DNA of 64,000 nucleotides, taken from contig CBDCRP010000003.1 of the NCBI GenBank assembly GCA_965221165.1, forward strand, positions 64,001 through 128,000. The letters are read 5' to 3'. This DNA is from a bacterium. GTDB taxonomy: Bacteria > UBA8248. The notes below the pieces were generated by a model. That model was not told where the DNA came from. It ran no database searches and was given only the letters and a program-made list of their open reading frames with translations. The position numbers were made by a program, and so were the translations under genes. Positions within the stretch are counted from its first letter, which is position 1; the number at the start of each line of letters is the position of its first letter. Shown piece after piece: positions 21,725-54,122 of this stretch.

Positions 21725-21821
21725 GAGCTTTTTGTGGGGTCCCGCTATGCAGATAGGATACCCGCCCTAGCCTATGCGGCTTTTTCGTCCATCTTCCGCT
21801 ATAATGCTCGAAATCACCATT

Positions 21822-30757: not shown

Positions 30758-30799
30758 CATTCATCGTTGGTTTCATGGCGATTCGATAGGAGACGGACA

Positions 30800-31981
30800 A
30801 TGGCGAAAGGCGCACCGGCTGAATCCAGAAACTTCAAATTAATAGGGCACGACCCGGATGCGGCATGGGGAGGCGGGAGTCTCGTCGAGGTGAAAAATGG
30901 ATACGCCTATGTCGGGGCCGTGGGAACGGCGAGTTATGACGGACCCGAGGGCTGGACAGTTCACGACGTATCAGACCCCAGCAAGCCGAGACGAATCACC
31001 GAAGTGTTCGCCCCTCCCGGACTGCACAACCACAAAGTCCGCATCGTGGGGGATGATCTCCTTTACGTGAATCACGAACGCTTAAAGACGCCGGAAGGAG
31101 AAAAGGCGAGGGCAGGGGTATGTATTTTCGATATCAGCAATCCATCCCAGCCGAAAGAAGTGGGTTTTTACGAACTGCCCGGATCGGGGCCGCACAGATT
31201 CGGCGTCGACAACGGGCGCGGCCTCGCATTTTTCCCGAACCATGCCGAAGGGTGGAGAAACCGGGTCATGTGGACCCTGGACATCAAAGACCCCTTAAAG
31301 CCCGAAGTGCTCAACATCGTCGGTCTCCCGCAGCAGGATCTGAGCCTCGATTATGAATACGAGGAGCCGGATGATTTCGAACGCTCATGGACGTGCCACG
31401 GGCCGGCCACCATTCGCGGGAATCGTATGTACTGCGGCTTCTGGGGAGCGGGTATGGGTATTTTCGATTGTACGGATCTGCGCAACATCACCTGCGTGGG
31501 AAACCTCTGCTGGTCGCCACCCTTCATCGGCTCCACGCACACCGTATGGCCGCTCGGCGACAGGCCGTACGTGGTGGTGACGGACGAGGCGCGCGCCCAG
31601 GAAAACTACGAACACAGCCAGTTCATGTGGGTGGTGGACATCCGGGATGAGACGAACCCGATTCCCATTTCCACCTACATACCCGACAGGGAAGAGAACA
31701 TGAACCGGGGCGGCCGCTTCGGCGCGCACAATATTCTGGAATACGTTCCTGCGGATGGCCCCTGGAAAGACATTATTTTCCTCACCTATTTCAATTCAGG
31801 TTTAAGGGCGGTTGATCTTTCAGACCCCTTCCAGCCCAAAGAAATCGGGCACTACATACCCGAACTCAACTTCGGGAAAGACTATGCGCAGTCGAACGAC
31901 ATCGGCATGGACGAGAACGGCCTGCTGTATCTGATCGACCGCAATGGAGCGGGGATGCACATCCTGGAGTACACCGGATAA
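30800..31981 (+). CDS. LVIVD-repeat beta-propeller protein
   Basis: Repeats DVSDPSKP, DISNPSQP, DIKDPLKP, DIRDETNP, DLSDPFQP; His motifs HNHK, GPH, TCH, STH, GAH. Confidence 0.8.
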   Translation: MAKGAPAESRNFKLIGHDPDAAWGGGSLVEVKNGYAYVGAVGTASYDGPEGWTVHDVSDPSKPRRITEVFAPPGLHNHKVRIVGDDLLYVNHERLKTPEGEKARAGVCIFDISNPSQPKEVGFYELPGSGPHRFGVDNGRGLAFFPNHAEGWRNRVMWTLDIKDPLKPEVLNIVGLPQQDLSLDYEYEEPDDFERSWTCHGPATIRGNRMYCGFWGAGMGIFDCTDLRNITCVGNLCWSPPFIGSTHTVWPLGDRPYVVVTDEARAQENYEHSQFMWVVDIRDETNPIPISTYIPDREENMNRGGRFGAHNILEYVPADGPWKDIIFLTYFNSGLRAVDLSDPFQPKEIGHYIPELNFGKDYAQSNDIGMDENGLLYLIDRNGAGMHILEYTG

Positions 31982-32039
31982 TCGTCATGGGCCGGCGTCC
32001 GGATTTTGGAAGAGATTATCTGAAGCGGGGAGGGGTTTC

Positions 32040-32477
32040 ATGAGCCCGGGTGATTTTCTCATCATTTGCGCCGCTTCTTTTCTGGCCACTTACGCCCATC
32101 TCGTGTTCGCCCTGATTGCGGACAAGATTGGCATGGTGAAGCTCGACTTCGGCAAGGGCCTCTCGATGCTCCTGTTCGGGGAGGCGTACGAGGGAAAACC
32201 CCCTTATGCGCTCGGCTTCATCGCCGTGCATCTGAACGGCATCATCTTCGGCTTGATGTACGCCACCGTGGGTGCGGGGTATATTTGCGGGCCGCCCGTG
32301 TTTCGCGGGCTAGTGTGGGGCGGGGCGCTCTTGATTTTCTCGCAATGCGTGTTCAATCCGTTCATTACGGGTCATGGCTTTTTCAGCCGCAAAATGCACC
32401 CCAGAGCATGGCAGACCGCGCTCATTGCTCACGCCATTTACGGCGGCGTGCTGGGCTGGCTCTCTCCGATACTATGA
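32040..32477 (+). CDS. Four-TM hypothetical membrane protein
   Basis: Hydrophobic segments with His in VHLNG and AHAIYG. Confidence 0.65.
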   Translation: MSPGDFLIICAASFLATYAHLVFALIADKIGMVKLDFGKGLSMLLFGEAYEGKPPYALGFIAVHLNGIIFGLMYATVGAGYICGPPVFRGLVWGGALLIFSQCVFNPFITGHGFFSRKMHPRAWQTALIAHAIYGGVLGWLSPIL

Positions 32478-32602
32478 GATTCGGATCGTGAATACCTCGG
32501 TAGTTCTAGGTCCCGATGAATGAATCAAATGGGATTTTATACGAAAGCACGAAATAAGAGTTGGCAGAAACCAGCGCTTTTGATCGGCTGGTGCCGATCT
32601 AG

Positions 32603-32866
32603 CTAGGATTCATCTTTTTTTCCGAATGCAAAACCTGCGGATGCAGCAATCACGGTTGCCGCTTCGGAGGTAAGTGCGTCATTCAAGGCGAGCAAGCCGA
32701 TGATCGGCAGCGACAGTGCCAGCACCGTATAGCGGATAAATTGCCAACCGAGGCCTCCCTTGCCGCCACTTTTACTTAAGCGGTAACGGTTCAAGAGCCC
32801 CCCGATCAGGACAATCGGGACCGCCGACGCGAGAATTACATTTGCGAGACAAAGCCAAGTTTCCAT
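32603..32866 (-). CDS. Small hypothetical membrane protein
   Basis: 87 aa with two or three hydrophobic helices, in a lower-GC patch. Confidence 0.55.
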   Translation of the reverse strand: METWLCLANVILASAVPIVLIGGLLNRYRLSKSGGKGGLGWQFIRYTVLALSLPIIGLLALNDALTSEAATVIAASAGFAFGKKDES

Positions 32867-33148
32867 TAAGCGGCTACACCTTGGTGTCTTAGACCACCCG
32901 AACCTGAGTTAGAACTGCGCGTGCCAACTAGTCCGAAGTGGTATCTATCTAGACCAGCTCTTCGAGTTCCGCCTTGTTCGGCCGAAAACTGTGCAGCTTG
33001 AAGAGAGTGATGTTGTCCCCGTGAGCCTTCCCCGGTACCTTCTGTAGCATCTCCAATCTCCCGTCTTAGTGATTATAACGTAAGCATTCCGAGCGACTCA
33101 GTCAACGGAAAATGTGACCTATGTATATAATTCCCAATCAAATACGCC

Positions 33149-33988
33149 CTATCTCCTCGCTCTTCTCGTCTTGGGCGCTTTGTTCTGCGCGGCCCAGCAC
33201 TTCGCCACCTCACCGGGCGCTGCGATCCAGGCGTCTCCTTTCGCGAGAATGTGCTGGATCAGCCTTTCGAGCATCCGCATCCGGTAGTGCTGGCCGATGA
33301 CCTGGGGATGGCACATGATGTTGATGTATCCGCCTTCCTCATAAGTGCCCTCGAATTCCTCTACCCATATCGAATAAACCGACTCCGCGTCGCGGATGCC
33401 GTGGCCGAGCGGGGGATTCGTGCTGTGGGCGAAGAAGATGAAATCATCGAGGCTCCACTTGGTGGGCAACTCCACCAGGCCGCAATCGTGGTAATAGGGC
33501 CAATCGTCGTCCATCATGTTCGAGTGATACAAGAGCCCGTGTTTTTTAAGGAGGCCCATGGTGTGGACGCTCGGGTCCGCCGAGGGGGTGCGCGAGCCTA
33601 TGATTTCCCCTCCCGTATCCCGCTTAAGGATATCCAAGGCGCGCACGAGCAGTTCTTCTTCGCGCTCGGCGTCACACATCTGATAGGGCTTTTCGTGGAT
33701 GTGACCGTGGTGGCCGATTTCATGCCCCGCCTTCACGATGGACTCGGTCATTCTCGGCCATTTCTCCACCGTCCAGCTCGGGATGTAGAAAGCGCCGGGC
33801 AGGCCGTATTTCTTGAGGAGCTTGAGTATCCGCGGTATCCCCACTTTGGGGCCGTAGGCGCCCATGGAGTTGTGGATGGGGCGCCCCCCCAGCGAGGGCT
33901 CCCGGCCCATCCAGACCGTCTCGCCGTCCACGTCGAAAGTCAGACACACGGCGCATCGCGCCCCATTTTCCCATTTTATCTTAGGCAT
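33149..33988 (-). CDS. Polysaccharide deacetylase family protein (PuuE-like, CE4)
   Basis: LTFDVDGE, YGPKVGIPR, HEIGHHGHIHE, CHPQVIG. Confidence 0.88.
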   Translation of the reverse strand: MPKIKWENGARCAVCLTFDVDGETVWMGREPSLGGRPIHNSMGAYGPKVGIPRILKLLKKYGLPGAFYIPSWTVEKWPRMTESIVKAGHEIGHHGHIHEKPYQMCDAEREEELLVRALDILKRDTGGEIIGSRTPSADPSVHTMGLLKKHGLLYHSNMMDDDWPYYHDCGLVELPTKWSLDDFIFFAHSTNPPLGHGIRDAESVYSIWVEEFEGTYEEGGYINIMCHPQVIGQHYRMRMLERLIQHILAKGDAWIAAPGEVAKCWAAQNKAPKTRRARR

Positions 33989-34027
33989 CCATTTTCCCTC
34001 ATCCTTTCTTTATAAGAAATCTTTCAC

Positions 34028-35251
34028 TCAAGAATCCGCCATCTTTATTAATGCGCGCGCCAGGACGTCGCAACCCCTGTAGGCGTCCTCCCAGTCCATG
34101 TCTTCTTCTTCGGAATGGCTCTTTCCGGCAACGCAGGGCACAAAAATCATGGCCGCGGGGCCGAGGTCGGCCACATAGCGGGCGTCATGTCCGGCGGCGC
34201 TCCACATGGAGCGATGGCTGTAGCCCGCTTCCTCACATACGCTTTCCAAGGCTTGCGACACGCCTGCGTCGAAGCGGATGGGAGTAGAGGAGCCGACGTC
34301 TTGAATCTCGATTTCAAGATTTTCCTTTTCCGCTTCTCTTTGCGCGGCTTCTTTGACGAGTTCCAGTCCTTTCTCCAATGTTTCCGGCTCGTTGTGCCTG
34401 AAATCGACTGAAAACGTCACCTCACCTGGAATGACGTTTATGGCGTTGGGCGATACGGAGATCTCCCCCACCGTAGCCACGAAATCGGGATGCAGTTTTG
34501 CGGGGATTTCACGGATTGCCGAAATGGTGCGCGCCGCGCCCACCAGGGCGTCGCGCCGCATGCGCATCGGCGTGGGACCGGCATGGTCCCGCTCTCCCTT
34601 CATGGTGACCCGGAGCCAGGTGAGGCCGTAAATCCCCTCCACGACCCCCACTTGCACCCCCTCGCTCACGAGAGCGGGACCTTGCTCGATGTGAAGTTCG
34701 AGATACGACCCGATAGGCCGGGGAACGCAGGTTGCATCTCCCCGGTAGCCGATGCGCTCGAGCTCATCCAGAAACCTGACACCTTCAGAGTCTCGCGTCT
34801 CATAAGCGGTCTCGAGCGTTATCGCGCCCGCGAACACGCCGCTTCCGAGCATGGAAGGCGGGAAGCGGGGCCCTTCCTCGTTCGTCCAGTTTACGATTTC
34901 TATCGGGCGTCTCGTCGATATATTCTTGTCGTTCAGCGTCCGGACGGCTTCCAGCGCACCCAGCACGCCCAGTGAGCCATCGAAGCGGCCTCCTTTGGGC
35001 ACACTGTCGAGGTGACTGCCCATCATGGCGGGGTGGGCGTCCTCATCCCGGCCCACTCGCCGGGCAAACATATTTCCCATCTCGTCAATTCGCAGGTCGA
35101 GGCCGGCATCGATCGCCCACGCGGCGAACAAATCCCTCGCTTGCTTGTCGGCGTCGGTGAGTGTGAGGCGATGCACGCCGCCGCCTTTCGTCGCTCCGAT
35201 ACGGGCCATCTCCTCCATGGATTGGCGAAAACGATCAGTGTTGATTATCAA
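34028..35251 (-). CDS. N-carbamoyl-amino-acid amidohydrolase (M20, hydantoinase/carbamoylase family)
   Basis: GSHLDSV..GGRFDG, WTNEEG, ELHIEQG, HAGPTPM, SAAGHDA, SHSEEE. Confidence 0.92.
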   Translation of the reverse strand: MIINTDRFRQSMEEMARIGATKGGGVHRLTLTDADKQARDLFAAWAIDAGLDLRIDEMGNMFARRVGRDEDAHPAMMGSHLDSVPKGGRFDGSLGVLGALEAVRTLNDKNISTRRPIEIVNWTNEEGPRFPPSMLGSGVFAGAITLETAYETRDSEGVRFLDELERIGYRGDATCVPRPIGSYLELHIEQGPALVSEGVQVGVVEGIYGLTWLRVTMKGERDHAGPTPMRMRRDALVGAARTISAIREIPAKLHPDFVATVGEISVSPNAINVIPGEVTFSVDFRHNEPETLEKGLELVKEAAQREAEKENLEIEIQDVGSSTPIRFDAGVSQALESVCEEAGYSHRSMWSAAGHDARYVADLGPAAMIFVPCVAGKSHSEEEDMDWEDAYRGCDVLARALIKMADS

Positions 35252-38573: not shown

Positions 38574-39788
38574 CTAACGTATAGGATCTCCCGGATTCGC
38601 CGCCGCCTGGTGAAGCGCCGAATTCTCCTCTGTTCTGGGCAACCAAGAGAAAGCGACCAGACTTCCCATGCATGCGATGCCGATTGCGCCAAAAACGAAT
38701 TCCAGGCCATATGTATCCGCCAGTATACCCAGAAAAAACAACCCCAGGCCAACAAAAATCTGATTCGCCGTAAAAATAACGCCGACGACGCTGCCGGCCA
38801 GTTCAGGCGGACTGACCTCAAAACCGTATGCGAAGATGGCCGAGCGCATGGAGATGAGGAAAACACCAACCGATGCGATGCAAACATAGAGGAAAATTCC
38901 CGTGCCCACGTGGGGAATCATGAACATCGCGATTCCGCCGGCGGCTATCCCGACGAAGAGGATCAACTTTCGGGAAATTCTGTCGGAAAGATAGCCGACG
39001 ATCGTTTCGGGAAATATGGAGGCGGCCGAATATGCGCCCAGCGCAAGGCCTAAGGTGCTCGGCCCCACGCCGTACTTTCTCACCAGCAAAATGGGCAGGA
39101 AAATCGAGACGACGTTATGCGCCAGCGTCCGCACGCCCGAGAAAACACAGGCTCCGATCATCCCGGGGTTCTTGATAAGCGCATCCACGAAATTGCCGGA
39201 AGTGATGGCGGAACCGGGCTTTTGCTTTCCGCTGGTTTGGAAAGGCTCCAGACAAACGCACAGGAGTATGGCCGTGGCGAACAGCGGAATCGTGTTCGCC
39301 AGCAATACGCCCCGCCACGTCATTATCAGGAGCAGATAACCCGCGATGATGGGGGCGAGGGTTTGTCCCAGGTTCGCGCCCGTTCCATGCACGCCCAGGG
39401 CGAAGCCTTTGCGGTTCTCGAAGCGCATTCCCAGCAAGCCCATAGCGGGTGGATGCCAACTGTGCGTCGCCAATCCGCTCAGCCATATGATGGGGGCCAG
39501 CATGAGAAATCCCGCCGAAAAACTCGCCGCGCCGTAAAACAGCCCGACGAAAGCCATGCACCCCACCAGCAGCCATTTCCCGCCGCCGTAAGCGTCGATG
39601 ACCAGGCCCGTTCCCACGCTGCTGAAAGCGCTCATTACGGCTCTGCCCGTAAACAGAAGTCCCACCTGGGTCAGCGTGAGGCCCAGATCTTCGGCCAGAT
39701 AAGGAATGACGGGGCCCAGAACGCCCTGGAACCAGTGTTCACAGGCGTGACCGGTGGTGAGCAGGGCGAGAAGTTGCCATTTCTTCAA
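38574..39788 (-). CDS. MFS transporter
   Basis: About 12 TM; GYLSDRISRK motif A; WHPPA, HGTGANLG. Confidence 0.85.
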   Translation of the reverse strand: MKKWQLLALLTTGHACEHWFQGVLGPVIPYLAEDLGLTLTQVGLLFTGRAVMSAFSSVGTGLVIDAYGGGKWLLVGCMAFVGLFYGAASFSAGFLMLAPIIWLSGLATHSWHPPAMGLLGMRFENRKGFALGVHGTGANLGQTLAPIIAGYLLLIMTWRGVLLANTIPLFATAILLCVCLEPFQTSGKQKPGSAITSGNFVDALIKNPGMIGACVFSGVRTLAHNVVSIFLPILLVRKYGVGPSTLGLALGAYSAASIFPETIVGYLSDRISRKLILFVGIAAGGIAMFMIPHVGTGIFLYVCIASVGVFLISMRSAIFAYGFEVSPPELAGSVVGVIFTANQIFVGLGLFFLGILADTYGLEFVFGAIGIACMGSLVAFSWLPRTEENSALHQAAANPGDPIR

Positions 39789-42790: not shown

Positions 42791-42858
42791 TTGACTTCCC
42801 CAGAAAATATAAATAGAATCATTGGTAGGACAATCCCATAATCCCTTTGTAGGATAAT
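42791..42858 (+). promoter_or_regulatory. Sigma70 promoter with FadR-type operator(s)
   Basis: TTGACT (42791-42796), 17 bp, TAGAAT (42814-42819). TGGT-AGG-ACAA at 42823-42833 fits TGGT-N3-ACCA with one mismatch. GTAGGA(C/T)AAT repeated at 42825 and 42849. Confidence 0.75.
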
Positions 42859-42895
42859 ATGCGATTCTGAGGGACGTGAATAAGAGGAACTCTGT

Positions 42896-43636
42896 ATGCC
42901 CATTGCCGGCAGACTACATACGGTAAAGAAAACACGCGTCTATGAGGCCATTGTCGAGCAACTCACGGCATTGATACTCGAAGGCGAAATCAAATCCGGC
43001 GACAAGCTGCCATCCGAACGAGAGCTGTGCGAGCAATTCGGCGTTGGCCGCAACTCGGTTCGGGAAGCCACGCGCTCACTGGAATCCGCCAGACTCGTCG
43101 AGACGAGGCAGGGGGAAGGCACGTTCGTCACGGCGCACCCGGAATCTATGATCCACATTATTTCCGAAAAAGTCTCCTCCGATGCGGAAAGCGGCATCCA
43201 CCATATTTTCGAGGCGCGCATGGTCCTGGAGCCTCAAATTGTCGCTTTGGCGGCCGAGCGTGTGACAAACGCGGAAATGAAAAAACTGGAAAACACGCTT
43301 CAGCAACAACTCGATGCGGTGGAAGGCGGAGGCCTCGGCTTAGAGGAAGACACGCAATTTCACCTGGGCCTTGCCAAGTCTGCCCAAAATGAATTTTTGC
43401 ACCATCTACTGAGTAGCTTGCTTAATTCCCTGAGTGAGATGCGCGAACGCTCGCTTCGTAATAAAAGCGTGCGCTTTCGCTCATGGGAAGCGCATCAGAA
43501 AATTCTGGATGCCATCTTGACGAAAGACAGGAATCGGGCTATTGCCGCAATGATCAGCCACCTGGTGGAGATTGAGGGCAACGAGGTCGAATCCCATCTG
43601 AATCTGGAACAGCAGGCGCATATGGAATCTGTATAA
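42896..43636 (+). CDS. FadR/GntR family transcriptional regulator
   Basis: GDKLPSERELCEQFGVGRNSVREA, RQGEGTFV; FCD domain D..FH..A.N, H..I..AI. Confidence 0.93.
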   Translation: MPIAGRLHTVKKTRVYEAIVEQLTALILEGEIKSGDKLPSERELCEQFGVGRNSVREATRSLESARLVETRQGEGTFVTAHPESMIHIISEKVSSDAESGIHHIFEARMVLEPQIVALAAERVTNAEMKKLENTLQQQLDAVEGGGLGLEEDTQFHLGLAKSAQNEFLHHLLSSLLNSLSEMRERSLRNKSVRFRSWEAHQKILDAILTKDRNRAIAAMISHLVEIEGNEVESHLNLEQQAHMESV

Positions 43637-43725
43637 ATCGATTTTCGAGGAATTACGGCTTTAAGTGGAATACGCTTTAAGGAAAAAGTCCAACTTCATC
43701 AACTCCAAAGTGGGGGGTATCGAAT

Positions 43726-44913
43726 GTGAGTGTAATATCATTTGAAGTAATCTACAGAGGGATTTTTCAGAAAAGCCTTGCAGTGAAAATTTCACGGTCC
43801 TTGATTCTCGCGGCCGTGAAAGAAGGAAAGCCGGGCATCTCCTTCGGGCGCTACAGCGATTCGCCCGAGCGCAACGGAATTCCGGCCAAGCAGTTCGGCT
43901 ACATCGCGGACAACGAAGAAGAGCTCGAGTCCGTGGCTGCGCAATACGAGCCGAAGCAGGTGGATATCTCCATCTGCGTGGACGATACGCTTTGTAAGGG
44001 CGTGGAGTCCTGGGCATGGTACGGTCTTCAGCCCATCAACGCCGTCACGAAGCCCGGCGGCACGCTGATAGTCACGTCCAACCAGAAAGAAGACGAACTG
44101 GTCAAGCATATCCACCGCAGGGAAACGCCTTATAAGCTCGCGATCATCCCTGGTGAGGCGAGCTTCGCCGGCCTTTGGGTGTACAAGAACGACGGCACGG
44201 ACGCGCGCTGCCTGGGCGCGGCCCTCAAGGCCGAGCCCACCATGTGCTCCATCGCATCTCTGGAGTCGGCGATTCGCGAGAACATCGGCACGGAAACGCA
44301 CGTCGAAGCCGCGCGCGAAGTCTATGAAGACTTGCGCCCCGTCGAAATCGAACCGGGCGAAGGCAACGACGAGGTGCCCTTCACCTTCGAACTCCTCAAG
44401 TGGCACGAAATGCGCCAGGGCGTCGTCATCGACGGCGTAGGAGGCCACGAGGGCTTCAGGGGCGGCGAGGATGGTTATGAGCCGGGAAGAAACCCCTACT
44501 TCAAGAAGTGGTCGACCCGGACGATGCGCCCGGTGCTATCCTTTGACAAATGCACCAAGTGCACTCTGTGCTGGGTCGCGTGCCCGGACACCTGTTTCGA
44601 CGTCACGCCTGACGGCTTCTTTGACGCCAACATGGAAGCCTGCTGCGGCTGCGGCGTTTGTGAAGCCATCTGCCCCGTCCCAGACTGCATCACGATGGTG
44701 AACGAAGTCGTTTTCGATGAACGCGACAGCCAGTGGCAGATGTGGCAGGAGAACAAGGAAGATTACGACAAGTACATGGACGAGAAAATCAGCACCGGCA
44801 AGATAGAAGGTCGTCATCCGATCACAGGCCTTGCCGGAGCTTTTTCGGGAGTAGGCCTCGCAACGGGCCACAACCCGGAAACGGCGAAAATCAAACCTCT
44901 AAAAGATCTTTAA
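43726..44913 (+). CDS. 2-oxoacid:ferredoxin oxidoreductase fused gamma/delta subunit (oxalate oxidoreductase delta-like)
   Basis: Gamma-like N-terminus without GGQG; two 4Fe-4S motifs CTKCTLCWVACP and CCGCGVCEAICP. Confidence 0.88.
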   Translation: MSVISFEVIYRGIFQKSLAVKISRSLILAAVKEGKPGISFGRYSDSPERNGIPAKQFGYIADNEEELESVAAQYEPKQVDISICVDDTLCKGVESWAWYGLQPINAVTKPGGTLIVTSNQKEDELVKHIHRRETPYKLAIIPGEASFAGLWVYKNDGTDARCLGAALKAEPTMCSIASLESAIRENIGTETHVEAAREVYEDLRPVEIEPGEGNDEVPFTFELLKWHEMRQGVVIDGVGGHEGFRGGEDGYEPGRNPYFKKWSTRTMRPVLSFDKCTKCTLCWVACPDTCFDVTPDGFFDANMEACCGCGVCEAICPVPDCITMVNEVVFDERDSQWQMWQENKEDYDKYMDEKISTGKIEGRHPITGLAGAFSGVGLATGHNPETAKIKPLKDL

Positions 44914-44926
44914 CAGGAGCTAAACG

Positions 44927-46144
44927 ATGGCGACAGCAATCGAACAACAACAAGGTGCAGGAGTTCATCTCCTCACCGGAAGCGAGGTCATGGCTCATAT
45001 CTGCCGCCTCGCCGACGTCGATGTCATCACGGCCTATCCCATCCGGCCGTATGACACCGTGATGCAGTATGTGTCCAAATTTATCGCAGAGGGCGATTTC
45101 GACGCCGACTATATTCCGGCGGAAAGCGAGCACGGCCAGTTCGAGATCGTCAAACACGCCTCGGCTTGCGGAGCGCGGGTGTTCACGGGTTCGAGCGGAG
45201 TGGGGTGGCTCTATGCGATGGAGCCGCTCGCCGTTACGGCCGGCCTGAGACTGCCCATGGTGGCCCTGGTCGGCTGCCGCGCGCTCGATGACCCCGGCGC
45301 ATTCGGCACCGAGCACAACGACGCCATGCTCGTTCGCGATTTGGGCTGGATGATCAACTTCCCGGACACGGCGCAGGAAGTCATCGAGCTCGGGCTTCTG
45401 GCATATCGCGTCGCCGAGGACCCGAGAGTCTTTCTGCCGTGCGCCATCGCGATGGACGGAGCGTTCCTGACCCACAGCCAGGCGACCGTGCGGCTGCCCG
45501 GCCAGGATGAAGTCAACGCATTCCTGCCTCCCTACGACAGGGGAGACCTGCTCCTTCACCCCGACAACCCCATCACCATCGCGCCGCAGGCGAATGAAGA
45601 CTGGCTCATGGAAGTCAGGCGACAAAGCAGCGAAGCGGCGAAAAACTCCTATACCGTGCTCAAGGAAGCCCACGCCGATTTCAGTAAAACTTTCGGCGTG
45701 AACACGAATCCCTTCCTCGATGAGTACATGACCGAGGATGCCGACATCGTGCTTTGCGGCGTAGGAACACTGAGTCTGCCGGTGAAAGTCGCCATTCGCG
45801 AAATGCGCAAGGAAGGCAAGAAAGTCGGCATGGTTCGCCTGAAATGGTTCCGCCCCTTCCCGACGGAAGAGTTGCGCGCATCGCTCTCGCGCTTCAAGGC
45901 GGTGGGCGTCATTGACCGCGACTATTCCTTTGGTTCACCCTATCACGGTGGAATCGTGTACAATGAAGTGAAAGCCGCCATGTACGGGGCGGACAAGGCG
46001 CCTCACATGAAAGGATTCGTATGCGGCCTCGGCGGCCGTGAGGTGCTGCTCGAAGACGTCAAACAGATGGCCGACAAGGTCATTTCCATGGGTCAGAACG
46101 ACACGGCCGACAACGAAGTCGACTGGATCGGAGTGAGGGGATAA
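44927..46144 (+). CDS. 2-oxoacid:ferredoxin oxidoreductase alpha subunit (oxalate oxidoreductase-like)
   Basis: YPIRP, ESEHG, GARVFTGSSGVG, FRPFP, GLGG. Confidence 0.9.
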   Translation: MATAIEQQQGAGVHLLTGSEVMAHICRLADVDVITAYPIRPYDTVMQYVSKFIAEGDFDADYIPAESEHGQFEIVKHASACGARVFTGSSGVGWLYAMEPLAVTAGLRLPMVALVGCRALDDPGAFGTEHNDAMLVRDLGWMINFPDTAQEVIELGLLAYRVAEDPRVFLPCAIAMDGAFLTHSQATVRLPGQDEVNAFLPPYDRGDLLLHPDNPITIAPQANEDWLMEVRRQSSEAAKNSYTVLKEAHADFSKTFGVNTNPFLDEYMTEDADIVLCGVGTLSLPVKVAIREMRKEGKKVGMVRLKWFRPFPTEELRASLSRFKAVGVIDRDYSFGSPYHGGIVYNEVKAAMYGADKAPHMKGFVCGLGGREVLLEDVKQMADKVISMGQNDTADNEVDWIGVRG

Positions 46145-46146
46145 TC

Positions 46147-47175
46147 ATGGCGGAAACTTCTGAATACAACATCGGAACACAGGAACTTCCCTTGATGGGG
46201 AAAGTGAACGCCATTCCCCAAAAAGCGGTGGAAGAGTATTTCACCAGCGGGCACAGAACGTGCCAGGGCTGTGAGAGCGCGCTCATCATGCGTCTCATGG
46301 CCAAGGCGGCGGGCCCTCGTTCCATCATCCTGGGCAGCACGGGCTGCATGTACGTGGCGAACACCACGTACTACAGCACCCCCTGGGTGGTGCCGTGGAT
46401 GCACACGCAGTTGGGTTCCTCGGGTTCGGCCGCAACGGGAACGGCGGCGGCTCTCCGCGCATTGATGCGCAAGGGCAAGATGAAGGAAGAGCCGATAAAC
46501 GTCATCGCCTTCTGCGGAGACGGCGGCGGCATCGACATGGGCGTGTCGTCCATTTCCGCGGCGCTGATGCACGCGAAGTACAATCTGGCGATCATCTGCT
46601 ACGACAACGAGTCGTACGCGAACACGGACATCCAGATTTCGGGCGCATCCCCCTGGGGCGCCAACACGACGTTCACGCCTCCGGGCAAGAAGTTCCGTAT
46701 CATGCACGATTGCTGGAAGAAGAACATCGCCGCCATGTACGCCGTTGGACACGTACGCTGCAACTACGTGGCGACTGCGGATGCCTCATATCCCGCGGAT
46801 CTGATCGACAAGGTCCGCAAAGCCCTGGCCGTCAAGGGGCCGGCGTTCGTGCACACGCTCGACCCCTGCCCGAAGGGTTGGGACTACGACCCCTTCTACT
46901 CCCATAAACTCGGCGAATTGGCCGTGGAAACCGGATTGTTCCCCCTCTGGGAGATGACGGACGGGGCGCTCACCTATACGGGCATTTCCGCCCGTCAGGT
47001 GTATGGCAAACGCTCCCGCAAGCCCGTGCGCGAGTATCTCGAGACGCAGGGCCGCTTCCACCATTTCCTAGATGAAGATTTTGAATTCTTCCAGGGGGAA
47101 GTCGATAAAATGTGGAACGACTGGATGGTTCCCGGCGTGATTCCCTTCAAGGTGAATGACCCGAGCAAAAAGTAA
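46147..47175 (+). CDS. 2-oxoacid:ferredoxin oxidoreductase beta subunit (TPP-binding)
   Basis: GHRTCQGC, TGCMYVANT, GDGG..YDNESYANT, PCPKGW. Confidence 0.92.
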   Translation: MAETSEYNIGTQELPLMGKVNAIPQKAVEEYFTSGHRTCQGCESALIMRLMAKAAGPRSIILGSTGCMYVANTTYYSTPWVVPWMHTQLGSSGSAATGTAAALRALMRKGKMKEEPINVIAFCGDGGGIDMGVSSISAALMHAKYNLAIICYDNESYANTDIQISGASPWGANTTFTPPGKKFRIMHDCWKKNIAAMYAVGHVRCNYVATADASYPADLIDKVRKALAVKGPAFVHTLDPCPKGWDYDPFYSHKLGELAVETGLFPLWEMTDGALTYTGISARQVYGKRSRKPVREYLETQGRFHHFLDEDFEFFQGEVDKMWNDWMVPGVIPFKVNDPSKK

Positions 47176-47207
47176 GTGATTCGCCAGTACGTTCGTTAGA
47201 AGTTTCG

Positions 47208-47238
47208 GGGCGGGGTCCGAAAGGGCCCCGCTCTTTTT
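47208..47238 (+). terminator. Rho-independent terminator of the oxidoreductase operon
   Basis: GCGGGGTCC-GAAA-GGGCCCCGC followed by TCTTTTT. Confidence 0.85.
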
Positions 47239-47275
47239 CGCTCACGCCTGAGCGCACGAATACAAAGAGACGAAG

Positions 47276-48166
47276 ATGAACGAAGTGAGGGAAACGAAAA
47301 AAGGGAAAGATGGATCTGCGATGGCGCATGTGCCCGCCGGCCCGTTCCTGATGGGTTCGGACATCGGGAACGCGGATGAGCGCCCCCAGCGCGAGGTCAC
47401 GCTCGACGCTTTCTGGATCGACAAATACTGCGTGACGAACGCGCTATACCGCGCTTTCCTGGAGGAAACCGAAGCGTTTCCCCCGCCTCCGTCATTCTCG
47501 AAAGATGATTTCGTGGGGCCGGAACAGCCGATAGTCAGCATAAGCTGGGAGGAGGCGAACGCCTACGCCCGCTGGGTGGGCAAGCGCCTGCCGACCGAGG
47601 CGGAGTGGGAGAAAGCCTCTCGCGGAACGGATGGCCGCAAGTATCCATGGGGTGAGGATGAGCCCTCCTATGAGCGAGCCGTTTACGCGAGCATTGATAT
47701 TCACCGCCCCGGAAACGTAGATGCGCACGAAGAAAGCGCCTCTCCCTACAATTGCGTACAGATGGCGGGAAACGTCTTCGAGTGGGTATCGGACTGGTTC
47801 GATGGATTCTATTACCAGACGGGTCCGTCGGAGAATCCCCGGGGGCTCGAAAAGCCGACCTTCGAGGTGGCGATGGCGCGGGTTCCCGTATTCGCCGTTC
47901 CGGGCGGGGGCACCCTGAGCATGGGTGAAGTCAAACGGGGCGAGCGCTATGAAATCTTACAGCGCGACGAGGACAGCTACAAGATTCTCTTTGGAAACAC
48001 CGAGGGCTGGCTCCCGCGCAGGGCAGGGTACGCCTGGACGGCGAAAGTCGCCCGGGGCTGCGGGTGGGATTACATAGAAGATAGCTTGCGGTGTTCGGCG
48101 AGAGAGGGTTTTGAGCCCTGGTACAAGAATTTCAACATCGGCTTTAGGTGCGCGATGGACGCGTAA
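47276..48166 (+). CDS. FGE/SUMF1 family protein with an SH3b-like insertion
   Basis: VPAGPFLMG, RLPTEAEWEKA.RG, MAGNVFEW, insertion of about 60 aa, then ARG.GW, IGFRCA. Confidence 0.85.
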   Translation: MNEVRETKKGKDGSAMAHVPAGPFLMGSDIGNADERPQREVTLDAFWIDKYCVTNALYRAFLEETEAFPPPPSFSKDDFVGPEQPIVSISWEEANAYARWVGKRLPTEAEWEKASRGTDGRKYPWGEDEPSYERAVYASIDIHRPGNVDAHEESASPYNCVQMAGNVFEWVSDWFDGFYYQTGPSENPRGLEKPTFEVAMARVPVFAVPGGGTLSMGEVKRGERYEILQRDEDSYKILFGNTEGWLPRRAGYAWTAKVARGCGWDYIEDSLRCSAREGFEPWYKNFNIGFRCAMDA

Positions 48167-48214: not shown

Positions 48215-49741
48215 TCAGGCCGAAGCGCCTCTACGAGAAATTCTGAATTTGAAAATCATGGGCAGCAGCGGGATGAAGAACAGGAGGGCGGAAACCATCA
48301 TCAATGCGGCGGCTATCGGGTGGTCTGCGAAGTCGAAGAAAATTCCGGGGCTGCCGTGGCTCATGATCATGCTCTGACGGAAAGTACGCTCCGTAAGACC
48401 CCCCAGCACCAGGGCCAACACCATCGGGGCGAGGGGATAATCCAGCTTGCGGAACACGTAGCCGATCGCGCCGAAAATGAACATCAGATACACGTCGAAC
48501 ATATCCTGGGTCGGCGAGAATCCACCCACCGCGCAGACGACCAGAATTATCGGAGCCAGAATCGTCATGGGCATTCTGAGCATCCAGATGAAGAGGGGAA
48601 CGGCGAAAATCGCGACGATGACCGCCATCGTGTTCGCGATATAGAGACTCCCCGTAAGGCCCCAGACGAACTCCGCGTTTTCGACGAACAGCCGGGGGCC
48701 CGGCACGAGGCCCCACACGAACAAGGCGCCGAGCATCACCGCCGTCGTCGGGGAGCCTGGAATTCCCAGCGTCAGCATGGGAAGCATGGAGCCCGTGCTC
48801 GCCGCGTTGTTGGCGCACTCGGGCGCGGCCACTCCCTCAATGGTGCCTTTGCCGAATTCGTCCTTATTTTTTGAAAACCTCTTCGCGATGCTGTAACTCA
48901 TGAAACTCGCAGGCGTCGCGCCGGCGGCGGGAAGCATGCCGACGAAAAACCCCAAAAGAGAACCTCGCAAAATGGTGGGGGAGTATTGCGAAAGGTCCTT
49001 CAAGGTCGAGATGACCTCCTTGATGCCGAGTTTGGCCTGGTAGCGCTCTTTTGTCTTGAACCCTTCTTCCAGGGTGTAGAAAATCTCACCGACGCCATAA
49101 ATCCCAATCGCCAGGACGAGGAAATTGATGCCGTGATAAAAACCCGTAATGCCTCCGAAGATCAGGCGCGGCGAGCCGCTCACGATGTCGGTGCCGACGG
49201 TCGACATGAGCAGACCGAGCATGGTGGCGATGAGCGTCTTGAGGGGGCTTTCCCCGCCCAATCCTGCAAACGTGGCGTACGCCAGCAGCACGACGGCGAA
49301 CTCTTCGGGCGGGCCGAAACGCAAGGCGAATTCAGCCAAAGGCGGTGCGAAGAAAGTGAAGAGGACGATGGATATCGTTCCGCCTATGAAACTGGCCACT
49401 GCCGCAGTCACAAGGGCATCGGCGGCTTTCCCTTTTCTCGCTAACGGGTAGCCGTCGAAAGTAGTCGCAACAGCCGTGGACGCTCCCGGGATATTCAGGG
49501 TGATCGAACTGATGGCGCCGCCGTACATGGCCCCGTAATAGATGGCGGCCAGGAAGATAATGGCGCTGGTAGGCGGAACCGCAAATGTAATGGGCAAGAG
49601 GATGGCGACGCCGTTCACGGAGCCCAACCCGGGCATCGCGCCAATGGCGATGCCCAAAACGACGCCGAACAGCGCCATCAAAAGATTTTGAGGCGAAAGC
49701 GCAATGCCCAGACCGTAAAATAGATTTCCGAGAATCTCCAA
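48215..49741 (-). CDS. tctA: Tripartite tricarboxylate transporter permease TctA
   Basis: GAMPGLG, YYGAMYGG, NIPG, APECANNA, LGIPGS. Confidence 0.95.
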   Translation of the reverse strand: MEILGNLFYGLGIALSPQNLLMALFGVVLGIAIGAMPGLGSVNGVAILLPITFAVPPTSAIIFLAAIYYGAMYGGAISSITLNIPGASTAVATTFDGYPLARKGKAADALVTAAVASFIGGTISIVLFTFFAPPLAEFALRFGPPEEFAVVLLAYATFAGLGGESPLKTLIATMLGLLMSTVGTDIVSGSPRLIFGGITGFYHGINFLVLAIGIYGVGEIFYTLEEGFKTKERYQAKLGIKEVISTLKDLSQYSPTILRGSLLGFFVGMLPAAGATPASFMSYSIAKRFSKNKDEFGKGTIEGVAAPECANNAASTGSMLPMLTLGIPGSPTTAVMLGALFVWGLVPGPRLFVENAEFVWGLTGSLYIANTMAVIVAIFAVPLFIWMLRMPMTILAPIILVVCAVGGFSPTQDMFDVYLMFIFGAIGYVFRKLDYPLAPMVLALVLGGLTERTFRQSMIMSHGSPGIFFDFADHPIAAALMMVSALLFFIPLLPMIFKFRISRRGASA

Positions 49742-49821
49742 CTCATTCAGTCCTTAGGACAAACCTTGCCCCCGTGATGACAGCGATTCCCCAAGGGCGG
49801 GCAAAGGAAATGGTTGAATAA

Positions 49822-50313
49822 TCAATTCCAGTAAAACAAGAACTCCAGATATCCTTTTGGCAGAGGGATAATCAAAAATTTTTCGAAAATGTAATACACC
49901 ACGACAGGGACGCCTATCGCTACGGCAACACTCGTCCTGAATCTGTGATGTCCCACCACGAACAGACAATAAAAGAGGAAAAGAGCAGACGAGAAATACA
50001 CGGAAATAACGGTGATCAGTAGAATCATGATCATTCCGGGAAGGCCGACACGCATCAAATCGTGCAGACCTTCCCTGCTCATAAAAATTCCTGAACCCTC
50101 GCCAGTTGATTTATTCCGGTGGGAGAAAAACAGCGATTCCAGCAATACGAGCAACGACACGCCGGCTATCCCCAAAGAGAGCCAGAAGGGGAGGAACCCC
50201 CCTCCTGGCCCTTCTTTTGGAAGAATGCCGACAGGCAGTTCCGTAGATTTCCAGGCGACGCCAAGGCATACGAGAATCAGACCAATGGCGACAATCCTAT
50301 CCGCCCGCTGCAT
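49822..50313 (-). CDS. tctB: Tripartite tricarboxylate transporter TctB
   Basis: GPGGGFLP, IFEKFL.IPLP; lies between tctC and tctA. Confidence 0.85.
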   Translation of the reverse strand: MQRADRIVAIGLILVCLGVAWKSTELPVGILPKEGPGGGFLPFWLSLGIAGVSLLVLLESLFFSHRNKSTGEGSGIFMSREGLHDLMRVGLPGMIMILLITVISVYFSSALFLFYCLFVVGHHRFRTSVAVAIGVPVVVYYIFEKFLIIPLPKGYLEFLFYWN

Positions 50314-50330
50314 CTAAATTCTTCTCCAAG

Positions 50331-51335
50331 CTAATTCTTCAGCAAACCCATACCCATGAGCAGCTTCTTATGCTTTGCGTCCTCGGAGGCGAAGAATTTG
50401 CCCAGAGGAGCGCCACTCAGGCAAGCGCGATTCAGGGCCTTCTTTTCCGTATAGGTTTTCCATTCCCCGGAAGCGCACAACTTGGAGAATAAATCGCTAT
50501 ACCATTTCAGGGCATCCTTGGGGATGCCGCCGGGCGCGGTGATGCTGCGCTGCATGAAATACACGAGTTGCGGCTGGCCCATTTCCTTGAAAGTAGGGAC
50601 TTCCTTGAAAGCGGGAATCCGCGCCGGGGTCAGTGCGGCGATCGGCCGCATTTTGCCGGGATAGTGCGGCAGACCCTCGGATGGGTTGTTCACCGTCGAA
50701 TCGACATGCCCGCCGGCGAGATTTTTCGCCACGGTGCCGCCGCCACGGAAGGGCACGTAGGTGATCATGCCTTCTATGCCATACGCCTGCATCAGCATGT
50801 TGGTGACGAGTTGGTCTTCCTGCATCTTGCCCGTGCCGCCCATCGTCCATTTGCCCTTTTTGGCTTTCACGGCCTTCACGAAATCATCCATATTCTTGAT
50901 GCCTGACTTCGGGTTCACCCAGAGGAGAAAGGTGTCCATGGCCAGCCGGTAGACCGGCGTGAGTTTCGTGTAGTTCACCGGCAGCTTCCTCAAGGCCGGG
51001 GTGGTGAAAAAACTGTTCAACGTGACGAGAATCACGTGCGGGTTTCCTTTTTTCGAGAGCAGATAAAGCATCGCCTCGGCGCCGGACCCGCCTTTCTTGT
51101 TGATGGGCACCAGGGGCTGGGGCGACCATTTGTTCTGCGTGACGATTTTTTGCATGAGACGGGCGATGCGGTCCGCGCCGCCGCCTTTACCCGCCATGAT
51201 GATGAACTCAATCGGCCGCGACGGCTTCCATGCCGCGAGAGCCTGTGTGGTCCCCAGCGCAACCGTGATGAATAACGTCAGCGCGAGGGTGAGGAACGGA
51301 ATAGCGCATCTCGAAACTTTCGGCGATTTCATCAT
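50331..51335 (-). CDS. tctC: Tripartite tricarboxylate transporter binding protein TctC (Bug)
   Basis: Signal peptide; WKPSRPIEFII..G.GGGAD..AR, N..GGSG, VPFRGGG. Confidence 0.92.
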   Translation of the reverse strand: MMKSPKVSRCAIPFLTLALTLFITVALGTTQALAAWKPSRPIEFIIMAGKGGGADRIARLMQKIVTQNKWSPQPLVPINKKGGSGAEAMLYLLSKKGNPHVILVTLNSFFTTPALRKLPVNYTKLTPVYRLAMDTFLLWVNPKSGIKNMDDFVKAVKAKKGKWTMGGTGKMQEDQLVTNMLMQAYGIEGMITYVPFRGGGTVAKNLAGGHVDSTVNNPSEGLPHYPGKMRPIAALTPARIPAFKEVPTFKEMGQPQLVYFMQRSITAPGGIPKDALKWYSDLFSKLCASGEWKTYTEKKALNRACLSGAPLGKFFASEDAKHKKLLMGMGLLKN

Positions 51336-52133: not shown

Positions 52134-52189
52134 AGCGCATCCCGGATGGCGGGACTTTGAATCTTCACGGCTATTCCCTGGAGTGGTTG

Positions 52190-53457
52190 ATGATCAGCGT
52201 GGAAGACGCTCAGAAATCGATACTGGAGATGATTCGCCCGATGGGGCGCGAAAGGGTGGGCCTTCTCGATTGCCCGGGCAGGGTGCTGGCCGAGGACGTC
52301 CATTCCTCGCGGCCCGTTCCGCCCTGGAACAACTCGGCGATGGACGGCTACGCCCTGCGCGCGGAAGACGTGCGCGGCGCGAGCCGCGAAACGCCAAAAG
52401 CCCTGAGGGTGTCGAGGAGATTCAGGCCGGCGTGATGGCGACGCGCACTCTCGGCCCGGGAGAGGCCATCAAGATCATGACGGGCGCGCCCATTCCAGGT
52501 GGAGCGGACGCCGTCGTGCTCGTCGAGGAGACGGAGAGAATCTCCGAGGAGGAAGTTCACGTTTTCCTCGCCGTACGCGAGGGAGAGGCCATCCGCCTGG
52601 CGGGTGAGGACGTCAAGCCGGGCGAGGAGGTTCTCTCCCGCGGCGTTCGCCTGGGCGCAGCTTCCGCCGGCATGTTGGCGAACATCGGCAGGGCGAGGGT
52701 GTACGTGCATCAAAAACCAAAAGTGGCCATTCTGGCGACGGGAGAAGAACTGGTCGATCTGGGCGATACGCCTGATGTGGGGCAGATATTCAACTCCAAT
52801 TCCTACGCCCTCGCGGCTCAGGTGCTCGAGGCGGGCGGAGAACCCGTTCTACTGGGCATCGCCCGCGATAACGCGGAAGACCTCACGCGCCACATCAACG
52901 ACGGGCTGGCCGCCGATCTGCTGATAACGAGCGGCGGCGTGTCGGTGGGGGATTTCGATCTGGTGAAATCCACGCTGGGCGGGCTGGGCAACGACATGCG
53001 CTTCTGGCGGGTGCGAATGAAGCCGGGCAAGCCGATGGCATTCGGCGTATTGAGCGGAAAGCCCGTGTTCGGCCTGCCGGGGAATCCCGTTTCCACCATG
53101 GTCAGCTTCGAGCTGTTCGTGCGGCCCTCGCTGCTGAAAATGCAGGGCCATGAGAACCTGTTCCGCACGATGGTGGAAGCGCGCCTTCTCCACCCGCTCA
53201 CGAAATCACCCGAGCGTCGCCACTATGTTCGCTCCATCGTCTACCGCGACGGGGGAGAATGGGCCGTCCGGGCGATCGAAGCGCAGGGGTCGAATATCTT
53301 GCATTCCATGGTGCGGGCGAACGCTCTGGTCGTATTCCCCGAATATGAAACCGAGCTCGCCGCCGGGGGCCGCGTACAGGTCATTCTCTTGGGGGAGACG
53401 CCCTCTGAAAAACCCGAACGCTTAGAGGCGGCCTCCCTCGAAGGCGTCCACTCCTGA
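52190..53457 (+). CDS. moeA: Molybdopterin molybdotransferase MoeA, frameshift near 52410
   Basis: GRVLAED..PP..NSAMDGYA in frame 1; IMTGAP.P.GADAV, TGEEL, ITSGGVSVG, KPGKP, LPGNP in frame 2. Confidence 0.92.
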
Positions 53458-53500
53458 ATCAATTGCTTCCAGGTTATCGACTCCTTCTGGAGTGTGCCTT

Positions 53501-54122
53501 ATGAACCCCGAAAAAACGGCCAGATTGCCGTTTTCCGCCGCCATCCTGGCCGGAGGCCGAAGCCGCCGGATGGGCAGGGACAAATCCATGCTGGAGATAG
53601 ACAAGGTTCCCATCATCAGGCGCATCGCGGATACCCTGGATGAGATATTCACAGAAATTTTCGTCGTAGCGAACGAGAAAGAAGAATATGAGCGTATGGG
53701 TCTCGCCGTGGTGGGGGATATTCATCCCGGCAACGACTCGCTGGGCGGCCTCCATACGGCCGTTGCGAGCGCGGCGGGCTCGCACGTTTTCGTGGTGGGG
53801 TGCGACATGCCGCTGCTGCAACCCGCTCTCATATGCGGCATGGCCTCCCTGGTGGATGATTGGGACGTGGTTGTCCCCATCAAGGACGACTACCCCTGAG
53901 CCGCTTTGCGCGTTCTACGGAAAAAAATGCGCGCCTCATATCGAGGAATCCATTTCGAGAGGCCGCCTGAAGATGATAGGGTTTCACGAGCAAGTGCGCG
54001 TCAGGAGAGTTGAGGAGGCGACCTGGAGGGCGTGGGATCCCGAGGGGGCGTCTTTCCTGAACGCGAACACGCCCGAAGAATTCGAGAAGAATAAAAACCA
54101 TCTCTATGAGGGGAGAGCCTGA
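53501..54122 (+). CDS. mobA: Molybdenum cofactor guanylyltransferase MobA, frameshift at a C-run 53894-53897
   Basis: ILAGGRSRRMGRDK, CDMP, then EPLCAFY and NANTPEE in the next frame. Confidence 0.9.

Follow-up and report, generated by a model that had tools for sequence, protein, structure and literature searches.

An OOR-like operon from a UBA8248 bacterium points to a large sister group of oxalate oxidoreductase with alanine at the Asp116 position

Can an enzyme built like oxalate oxidoreductase (OOR) work without Asp116, the aspartate of the Moorella thermoacetica enzyme, and on which substrate would it then act? The question is raised by a four-gene locus in a 64,000-nt stretch of DNA from a bacterium of the GTDB lineage UBA8248 (assembly GCA_965221165.1, contig CBDCRP010000003.1, positions 64,001 to 128,000), hereafter referred to as the window. 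Positions 42791-47244 of the window comprise a promoter-like site, an operator-like box, a GntR/FCD regulator, the gamma-delta, alpha and beta subunits of an OOR-like enzyme and a terminator. To our knowledge, only one OOR has ever been characterised. We find that the Asp116 position is occupied by alanine in this enzyme and in a large group of relatives (A-type), and that the enzyme is probably, though not securely, an A-type OOR acting on oxalate. The features of the locus are as follows.

42791..42819, + strand: sigma-70-like promoter, TTGACT-17 nt-TAGAAT, with 10/12 consensus matches (consensus match only)
42822..42858, + strand: candidate operator of the GntR/FCD regulator (box repeat; footprint in relatives)
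42896..43636, + strand: GntR-family regulator, FadR (FCD) subfamily, 246 aa (Pfam GntR winged helix-turn-helix and FCD)
43726..44913, + strand: gamma-delta subunit, 395 aa, GTG start (OOR delta as best match; Foldseek; motifs)
44927..46144, + strand: alpha subunit (domains I-II), 405 aa (Pfam, NCBIfam, PDB alignment, motifs)
46147..47175, + strand: beta subunit (domain VI), 342 aa (Pfam, NCBIfam, PDB alignment, motifs)
47207..47244, + strand: intrinsic-terminator-like hairpin of 12 bp (9 GC), then a T run (motif scan, fold energy)

The genes are genuine and not chance open reading frames (ORFs), with Pfam and NCBIfam E-values of 1e-24 to 1e-109; the alpha subunit scores 191.8 bits to POR_N and 96.9 bits to PFOR_II, and the beta subunit 57.6 bits to TPP_enzyme_C. 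A first-pass annotation made from the sequence had placed the enzyme closest to OOR and not to pyruvate:ferredoxin oxidoreductase (PFOR), and this is borne out for all subunits: OOR models are the top NCBIfam match of each (alpha 364.4, beta 339, delta 95.6 bits), and in the PDB the best match is Moorella OOR, 5c4i (alpha 327.2 bits, E 1e-96, phmmer; beta 286.2 bits; delta 72.7 bits), followed by the archaeal-type PFOR 9bt4 (205.6 bits, 204.3 bits and, for the delta domain, 57.2 bits). Public annotation would instead make it a pyruvate (or 2-oxoisovalerate):ferredoxin oxidoreductase, the name given to its relatives, and it does match PorA_Arch at 327 bits and PorB at 279.5 bits. Both scores, however, lie under the respective cut-offs (550 and 405) and under the OOR scores; Thr31 of the PFOR motif YPITP is an arginine; the PF01558 gamma domain could not be found at E<=0.001; domain III matches OOR delta alone; and in the tree described below the A-type falls together with OOR and apart from the 26 YPITP representatives. 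We consider a pyruvate enzyme very improbable.

The subunit and domain plan is that of OOR both in sequence and in fold, with domains I-II in alpha, III and V fused in gamma-delta and VI in beta, and with motifs for three [4Fe-4S] clusters and thiamine pyrophosphate (TPP). In the beta subunit the TPP motif GDGGG...YDNESYANTDIQ (GDG...N) and the proximal-cluster cysteines C39, C42, C67 and C241 are intact. In the gamma-delta subunit a divergent domain III (residues 1 to about 215) is joined to a ferredoxin domain of the 2x[4Fe-4S] kind, after which comes a C-terminal tail of about 65 residues; the subunit's CxxCxxCxxxCP motifs at residues 276-287 and 306-317 leave both ferredoxin-type clusters intact. 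A Gly-rich string marks the gamma subunits that bind coenzyme A (CoA). A motif search of the whole gamma-delta subunit found no GG.G string, and its N-terminal 215 residues are without any Pfam match, PF01558 included, at E<=0.001. The family profile of domain III matches the N-terminal part of OOR delta only (34.8 bits, E 8e-8), and a Foldseek search with an AlphaFold model of gamma-delta gave OOR delta chains as best hits (E 5.8e-14), followed by gamma subunits of PFOR and 2-oxoglutarate:ferredoxin oxidoreductase, with TM scores of 0.63-0.76 to the target. The model, used for the fold match only, has a mean pLDDT of 61, with 10-residue blocks of domain III mostly at 70-96 and the ferredoxin domain and tail below 50. 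Given the profile match to OOR delta alone and the Foldseek ranking, the first domain is a divergent, OOR-like domain III; an ESM Atlas search returned a 0.86 match to a PF01558 cluster, which we treat as a lead only. Two segments of gamma-delta are missing from Moorella OOR delta, a family-conserved 9-residue insert in domain III, ESWAWYGLQ (residues 94-102, nt 44005-44031), and the C-terminal tail of about 65 residues (331-395); both are of low confidence in the AlphaFold model and may be contact or shielding elements.

The motifs that the first-pass annotation had pointed out are present as written: YPIRP at alpha 37-41 (nt 45035-45049), RALDDPGAFG at alpha 118-127 (nt 45278-45307), which is the equivalent of the OOR switch loop, and YRGIFQK at gamma-delta 10-16 (nt 43753-43773), in a subunit that indeed lacks the Gly-rich motif. 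The phmmer alignment of alpha to 5c4i_A is ungapped from residue 15 to past 200, and pairs window alpha with Moorella OOR alpha in the following way.

Window R40 with Moorella Arg31
Window R118 with Moorella Arg109
Window D121 with Moorella Asp112
Window D122 with Moorella Pro113
Window A125 (nt 45299-45301) with Moorella Asp116
Window F126 with Moorella Phe117

The suspicion that Asp116 is replaced by alanine is thus upheld, and the alternative allowed for at the time, that the residue is retained as an Asp of LDD, fails in the alignment, where D121 and D122 fall on Asp112 and Pro113 and neither pairs with Asp116. The equivalents of Arg31 and Arg109 are both kept and are invariant in the family alignment, and alignment to 5c4i shows that beta Asn143 is kept as well. 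In Moorella OOR, Arg31 of YPIRP serves to bind the charged substrate and Arg109 is the arginine conserved for carboxylate binding; Arg31 also works with Asp116 in a 'bait and switch' mechanism (PMC5020499, available in part).

The altered loop is no singular case but proves to be fixed in a very large family. Of 8000 candidates scored in a word-indexed search, 5058 were relatives at E<=0.001; the best 120 are at least 63% identical to the window alpha, those with a name are called 'pyruvate ferredoxin oxidoreductase', and YPIRP and RALDDPGAFG occur in all 120. In GTDB species-representative genomes, at least 547 of at least 573 pattern matches encode a relative. The best 80 loci all come from metagenome-assembled genomes, 43 of them from Acidobacteriota, seven from Nitrospinota, six each from Myxococcota and Pseudomonadota, with single loci in five other phyla; the window alpha is 98% identical to those of loci L001 and L002 and 96-97% identical to that of a Nitrospinaceae locus, L006. 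An exhaustive search of representatives at 50% identity found one full-length member of the window's clade (P0121, 62%), then P0129 (43%; FPIRP, RALDDPGNFA), P0130 (41%; YPIRP, RTLDPPGDFG) and, at 38% or less, YPITP enzymes. P0130 scores 511.7 bits to 5c4i_A as compared to 327.2 for the window alpha, and among its relatives RTLDPPGDFG is found in 112/119, a further three being one-residue variants that keep the aspartate (115/119 in all), which makes it the canonical D-type. P0129 and P0271 form a rare third lineage of the YPIRP type (FPIRP, RALDDPGNFAMEW) with asparagine at the Asp116 position (N-type), whose 90% cluster has three members. Another alpha relative, P0169, is a 709-aa enzyme of the YPITP type (FPVTP) in which some 300 extra residues sit exactly within the equivalent of the switch loop; ending in HN followed by C, this insert looks intein-like.

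To place these types we used a quick IQ-TREE run on 57 hand-picked alpha sequences, that is, the window, 13 A-type, 15 D-type, 2 N-type and 26 YPITP sequences, the last being the first 26 representatives of 375-425 aa; the Moorella sequence itself lies outside this tree. All YPIRP types form one clade (SH-aLRT 99) apart from the 26 YPITP representatives, with support of 100 for the D-type, 99 for the A-type and 100 for the N-type, which stands beside the A-type (91, not starred). The window alpha falls outside the D-type clade, which takes P0130, and the A-type clade is sister to the D-type, in line with the sister enzyme of OOR foreseen in the first-pass annotation. A comparison of 117 A-type with 92 D-type full-length alphas shows 76 columns fixed for one residue in both groups and 35 fixed for different residues, the D-type to A-type differences including T34 to D43, T110 to A119, P113 to D122, D116 to A125, T122 to N131, P214 to E224 and Q216 to W226. 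Among JGI names, 'oxalate oxidoreductase' has been added for the canonical clade only. An alpha search of PLSDB gave 44 records, all with a best identity below 60% and, among the matches listed, 24-33% and of porA/nifJ type; the A-type enzyme was not found among them. In the literature searched, no OOR-like clade with this loop turned up; the primary OOR papers and the structural-phylogeny review, which were outside the coverage of the search, may show one. Judged by its sequences, the A-type is a large and unrecognised sister group of canonical OOR.

What could take the place of Asp116? The side-chain pocket of DaPFOR is made of Leu121, Ala219, Ile843, Asn996 and Met1202 (PMC5020499, available in part). 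In a profile alignment Leu121 sits in a two-residue insertion just ahead of the A125 position, with which Ile123 pairs, and Ala219 pairs with Q221, a glutamine in OOR too; Asn996 corresponds, by motif, to beta N159, the same residue as in OOR, and Ile843 would correspond to beta V70, again as in OOR. Since the other mapped positions are the same as in OOR, the pocket of the window enzyme, compared at the DaPFOR positions, is predicted to be that of OOR except at position 116. The beta subunit reads YANTDIQ as opposed to NTGIQ in the Moorella enzyme and in Methanosarcina acetivorans PFOR, which puts Asp161 (nt 46627-46629) two residues past the active-site asparagine. Fused alpha-beta 2-oxoacid:ferredoxin oxidoreductases have NTG.Q in 8/8 motif-matched sequences (8 of 13 searched), and D161 is invariant in 24/24 aligned family members and at least 95% conserved in 59. 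In alpha, D122 for P113 and D43 for T34 are fixed differences between the 117 A-type and 92 D-type sequences; the Gly145 state of D-type beta, as well as D-type gene context, is known from the Moorella enzyme alone. Because three aspartates are gained, and fixed, along with the loss of Asp116, and because in the N-type, too, DD goes with a non-acidic residue at 116, we favour a relocated acid, with one of alpha D122, alpha D43 and beta D161 probably taking over the role of Asp116.

An ordinary OOR would still be at hand if the loop re-registered in three dimensions so that Asp122 (or Asp121) filled the Asp116 site and left the mechanism unchanged. The loop does keep the frame LD.PG.FG and gains an aspartate three residues ahead of the lost one, the rare N-type P0129 shows the same pairing of DD with asparagine at 116, and the oxalate gene context described below applies equally to such an enzyme. 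The alignment is ungapped, however, and Asp121 already has its counterpart in OOR Asp112; the change is fixed alongside many others, including beta G145D; and the A-type and D-type clades are cleanly separate. We regard re-registration as quite unlikely.

The substrate was approached through gene neighbourhoods, by tblastn of the window and locus proteins against the best 80 loci plus the window, counting the loci that were long enough. Nitrospinota-type loci are the window and L001-L017.

OxlT-type major facilitator superfamily (MFS) gene directly after beta, same strand: Nitrospinota-type 0/14, others 34/51
AMP-forming ligase and PanE/ApbA-type reductase upstream: Nitrospinota-type 0/14, others 16/50
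FGE-sulfatase-domain gene directly downstream: Nitrospinota-type 14/14, others 0/51
Convergent TctCBA transporter (TctA): Nitrospinota-type 12/14, others 0/39

Against the oxalate/formate antiporter equivalog, whose cut-off is 335, seven MFS members taken from both sub-types reach 463-533 bits. The best PDB matches of the acyl-CoA ligase are oxalyl-CoA synthetases (6qjz at 411.9 bits, 5ie0 at 406 bits and a third at 375.4 bits), the next family following at 240.8 bits. PanE2 of Methylorubrum extorquens is an oxalyl-CoA reductase (PMC8411744, available in part), and a route from oxalyl-CoA to glyoxylate has been described (PMC13409138, available in part). A class-V aminotransferase, with Asp-glyoxylate aminotransferase as its best match though under the cut-off, is present in 15/81 loci, a gene like malate synthase A in 5/81 and a GTP-dependent phosphoenolpyruvate carboxykinase (PEPCK) in a subset of loci, while Frc and Oxc are not among the annotated recurrent neighbour families of A-type loci. 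In much of the family the operon thus looks like the oxidative, energy-yielding branch of a cluster for oxalate uptake and assimilation. On the strength of the OxlT-type transporter, the oxalate-CoA-ligase homologue and the PanE-type reductase, oxalate is favoured as the substrate, and the different 2-oxoacid suggested in the first-pass annotation is disfavoured. Within the window, the MFS gene at 38574-39788 was considered as an OxlT and rejected, its best score being 41.8 bits, in the PgtP family.

An enzyme of the same fold, equally independent of CoA, might nevertheless act on another small substrate, such as glyoxylate, oxamate, mesoxalate or a similar C2/C3 acid, the change from aspartate to alanine enlarging or neutralising the pocket; we hold this to be possible, if unlikely. 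Alanine at a pocket position, the 35 clade-fixed differences from canonical OOR in alpha alone and the fact that the subunits stay under the OOR equivalog cut-offs would all suit a change of substrate, but the two arginines for the two carboxylates of oxalate are invariant, and neither glyoxylate nor oxamate would require that of YPIRP. Glyoxylate fits the gene context almost equally well, given that the ligase, the PanE-type reductase, the aminotransferase and the malate synthase converge on it; against this, the most frequent co-oriented gene is the OxlT-type transporter, above its equivalog cut-off, and the ligase most resembles oxalate-CoA ligases. A CN-hydrolase lies near the operon in 6/81 loci, and the window itself has two genes at 33-35 kb, one for an allantoate amidohydrolase and one PuuE-like, as well as a gene like tartronate-semialdehyde reductase at 29.9 kb, from pathways that make glyoxylate or oxamate; the purine-pathway genes, however, are 8-13 kb away with unrelated genes in between, and do not recur near the operon elsewhere.

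Several observations weigh against an A-type OOR acting on oxalate. None of the subunits reaches its OOR equivalog cut-off (alpha 364.4/500, beta 339/590, delta 95.6/230), and the missing Asp116 is a residue reported as important for the OOR mechanism (PMC5020499, available in part). The OxlT-type proteins also just pass the L-lactate transporter model (321-347 against a cut-off of 320), OxlT is missing from 17/51 of the loci that are not Nitrospinota-type, and it is odd to find an oxalate/formate antiporter paired with an enzyme producing only CO2. The window's own lineage lacks the oxalate neighbours (OxlT, ligase and PanE present in 0/14 Nitrospinota-type loci), so that oxalate as the substrate there is extrapolated from a 65% identity and from signature residues that are the same. 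In this lineage the Tct system would be the candidate importer of the substrate. Beyond the terminator lie:

47276..48166, + strand: FGE-sulfatase-domain protein (156.4 bits), possibly outside the unit, a constant neighbour in the lineage
48215..51335, - strand: TctA-TctB-TctC tripartite carboxylate transporter, convergent with the operon (TctA 518.4, TctB 59.5, TctC 92.3 bits)

Should the enzyme be an A-type OOR acting on oxalate, the following sequence of events can be proposed. The four-gene operon would be autoregulated, the repressor-type GntR/FCD regulator sitting on a box that overlaps the transcription start until a small carboxylate, most likely oxalate, binds to it and releases transcription of the regulator and of the three-subunit enzyme. 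This would be an oxalate:ferredoxin oxidoreductase of alpha, beta and gamma-delta, with TPP as well as three [4Fe-4S] clusters. Oxalate, held between Arg40 of YPIRP and Arg118, would add to TPP, the first CO2 would leave the adduct, and two electrons would pass through the proximal cluster in beta and the two distal clusters in gamma-delta to ferredoxin; the second CO2 would then leave, CoA not being needed. The step ascribed to Asp116 would be carried out differently, by one clade-fixed aspartate, either alpha 122 in the same loop, alpha 43 or beta 161.

How the operon may be controlled is suggested by its layout. The first-pass annotation had described a complete unit from promoter and operator to terminator, and a promoter-like site and a terminator hairpin were found exactly at the limits it gave, the hairpin at 47207-47234 being followed by TTTTT and folding with -26.2 kcal/mol (z -2.4). 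The gaps among gamma-delta, alpha and beta are 2-13 nt, and the gap from the regulator to gamma-delta is 89 nt, in which a terminator scan found no terminator-like site and in which the ribosome-binding site is the only part conserved among relatives. Owing to these short gaps, and with neither a terminator-like site nor conservation beyond the ribosome-binding site in the longer one, the four genes are probably on a single transcript. A perfect palindrome between the regulator and gamma-delta, AAGTCCAACTT, was dropped as an operator because it is unconserved in relatives.

The regulator had been called fadR-type, which holds for the subfamily, the protein having a PF00392 GntR winged helix-turn-helix (83.4 bits, cut-off 27) and a PF07729 FCD domain (90.8 bits, cut-off 24.3), but not for FadR proper, since NF003444 gives 29.8 bits against an equivalog cut-off of 189. 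Its best NCBIfam matches are NanR (133.1 bits, cut-off 260), LldR (119.9 bits, cut-off 311) and PdhR, all sub-threshold. GntR winged helix-turn-helix and FCD are common to the window regulator and the carboxylate regulators of the FadR subfamily (PdhR, LldR, GlcC, NanR), from which it differs in that it stays under every equivalog cut-off, NanR, LldR and FadR included. A regulator lies directly upstream on the same strand in 65/72 loci with enough upstream DNA, comprising 17/17 Nitrospinota-type loci and 48/55 others.

In the AT-rich spacer upstream of the regulator, the candidate operator box TGGTAGGACAAT occupies 42823-34 and runs on as CCCATAA to 42841; a weaker second copy, TTGTAGGATAAT, lies at 42847-58, the copies being 24 nt apart (chance expectation 0.35). 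A 13-nt direct repeat, TTGGTAGGACAAT then TTTGTAGGATAAT, lies 3 nt past the -10 hexamer. The candidate, TGGT-N3-AC(A/C)A, resembles the TGGT-N3-ACCA boxes of FadR-subfamily GntR regulators (PdhR, LldR, GlcC, NanR). Consensus scans alone are weak, with three promoter-like sites seen and 2.1 expected, and the operator claim is strengthened by a footprint in relatives: in an alignment of the window with 10 Nitrospinota-type loci (regulator identity to the window 57-87%), the block TGGTAGGA.AA...CATAA is the sole strongly conserved stretch and is found in 11/11 upstream regions, most of which also share a GTTGAC -35 block. The second copy is restricted to the window and L002. In more distant loci, scanned from 220 bp upstream of the regulator ORF to 20 bp inside it, TGGT-N3-AC(C/A)A boxes occur in 4/41 (L021, L027, L054 and L064), which by a rough estimate would be a modest enrichment. 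The position of the box just past the -10 hexamer would fit a repressor site and autorepression. In seven Acidobacteriaceae-type loci (L024, L029, L032, L033, L039, L045 and L065) the stretch separating the PanE-type gene from the regulator holds another palindromic box, GTGTA(C/T)AACTG, located 97-174 bp upstream of the regulator; this box may be a second type of operator.

Further genes were observed elsewhere in the window. A second FGE-sulfatase-domain protein is encoded at 21774-22679 (+). At 26804-28437 (-) an ATP-dependent PEPCK is split into overlapping ORFs, 27448-28437 and 26804-27619, covering positions 2-265 and 253-464 of the Pfam PEPCK_ATP profile, by a frameshift or an assembly error. 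Beyond the Tct transporter, 52183-53899 (+) holds MoeA-like and MobA-like molybdenum-cofactor genes, and 5141-8828 a CoxE-like von Willebrand factor A gene and a flavoprotein subunit of the CO-dehydrogenase type. A cluster of glyoxylate-, glycine- and purine-related genes spans 28649-35251, 8-13 kb from the operon, with a GcvT-like aminomethyltransferase (28649-29722), a gene like 2-hydroxy-3-oxopropionate reductase (29882-30757, score under the cut-off), a PuuE-like gene of the deacetylase family (33149-33988) and an allantoate amidohydrolase (34028-35251) that scores 527.6 bits where the cut-off is 452; glyoxylate, oxamate or oxalate might be supplied internally by this cluster.

With both arginines kept and Asp116 lost in the A-type, the role of this residue becomes testable by comparing the two types and swapping residues between them. 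The family is annotated as pyruvate:ferredoxin oxidoreductase and is missed by the NCBIfam OOR models. According to a review of oxalotrophy, its extent will be underestimated by surveys that rest on oxc and frc (PMC13409138, available in part), a gut study left OOR out of consideration (PMC8062136, available in part), and a study of Tectomicrobia predicts oxalate use from genes (PMC10227082, available in part). As surveys rely on frc/oxc or exclude OOR, they perhaps underestimate how much oxalate Acidobacteriota-rich soils and Nitrospinota can oxidise. Nitrospinota use the reductive tricarboxylic acid (rTCA) cycle (PMC10839748, available in part), and a supply of low-potential electrons would be of note for their physiology. 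A broader proposal, which we put forward as tentative and think unlikely as a whole, is that the A-type constitutes a major and as yet uncounted route by which oxalate is directly oxidised in soils and ocean, and that it does without the Asp116 switch, through a relocated acid (beta Asp161, alpha Asp122) or water-assisted release of the second carbon. If true, the bait-and-switch mechanism would not be general for OOR, and in rTCA autotrophs such as Nitrospinota oxalate electrons at the level of ferredoxin would feed CO2 fixation directly.

Among known systems the closest is Moorella thermoacetica OOR (EC 1.2.7.10; PDB 5C4I, 5EXD, 5EXE; NCBIfam NF045790-NF045792), with which the A-type enzyme shares the domain split over three subunits, the YPIRP arginine, Arg109, beta Asn143, the frame LD.PG.FG, the TPP motif, the cysteines for three [4Fe-4S] clusters and the divergent domain III without a Gly-rich motif. 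It differs in having alanine for Asp116 and aspartate for Pro113, Thr34 and beta Gly145, and in a gamma-delta that is 80 aa longer than Moorella OOR delta, with the ESWAWYGLQ insert and the C-terminal tail; its hosts are Acidobacteriota, Nitrospinota, Myxococcota and others, whereas the Moorella host is a thermophilic acetogen. Four-subunit PFOR (Methanosarcina acetivorans PorABDG, PDB 9BT4) belongs to the same superfamily and has the same cofactors, but has YPITP, a separate CoA-binding gamma subunit and a hydrophobic loop, SAPINIW, in place of DDPGAFG. The CoA-dependent oxalate pathways (OxlT, oxalate-CoA ligase and PanE2 of Methylorubrum extorquens) have homologues flanking many A-type operons in Acidobacteriota and others; compared to these pathways, the OOR-like enzyme would replace Frc/Oxc as the energy-yielding branch.

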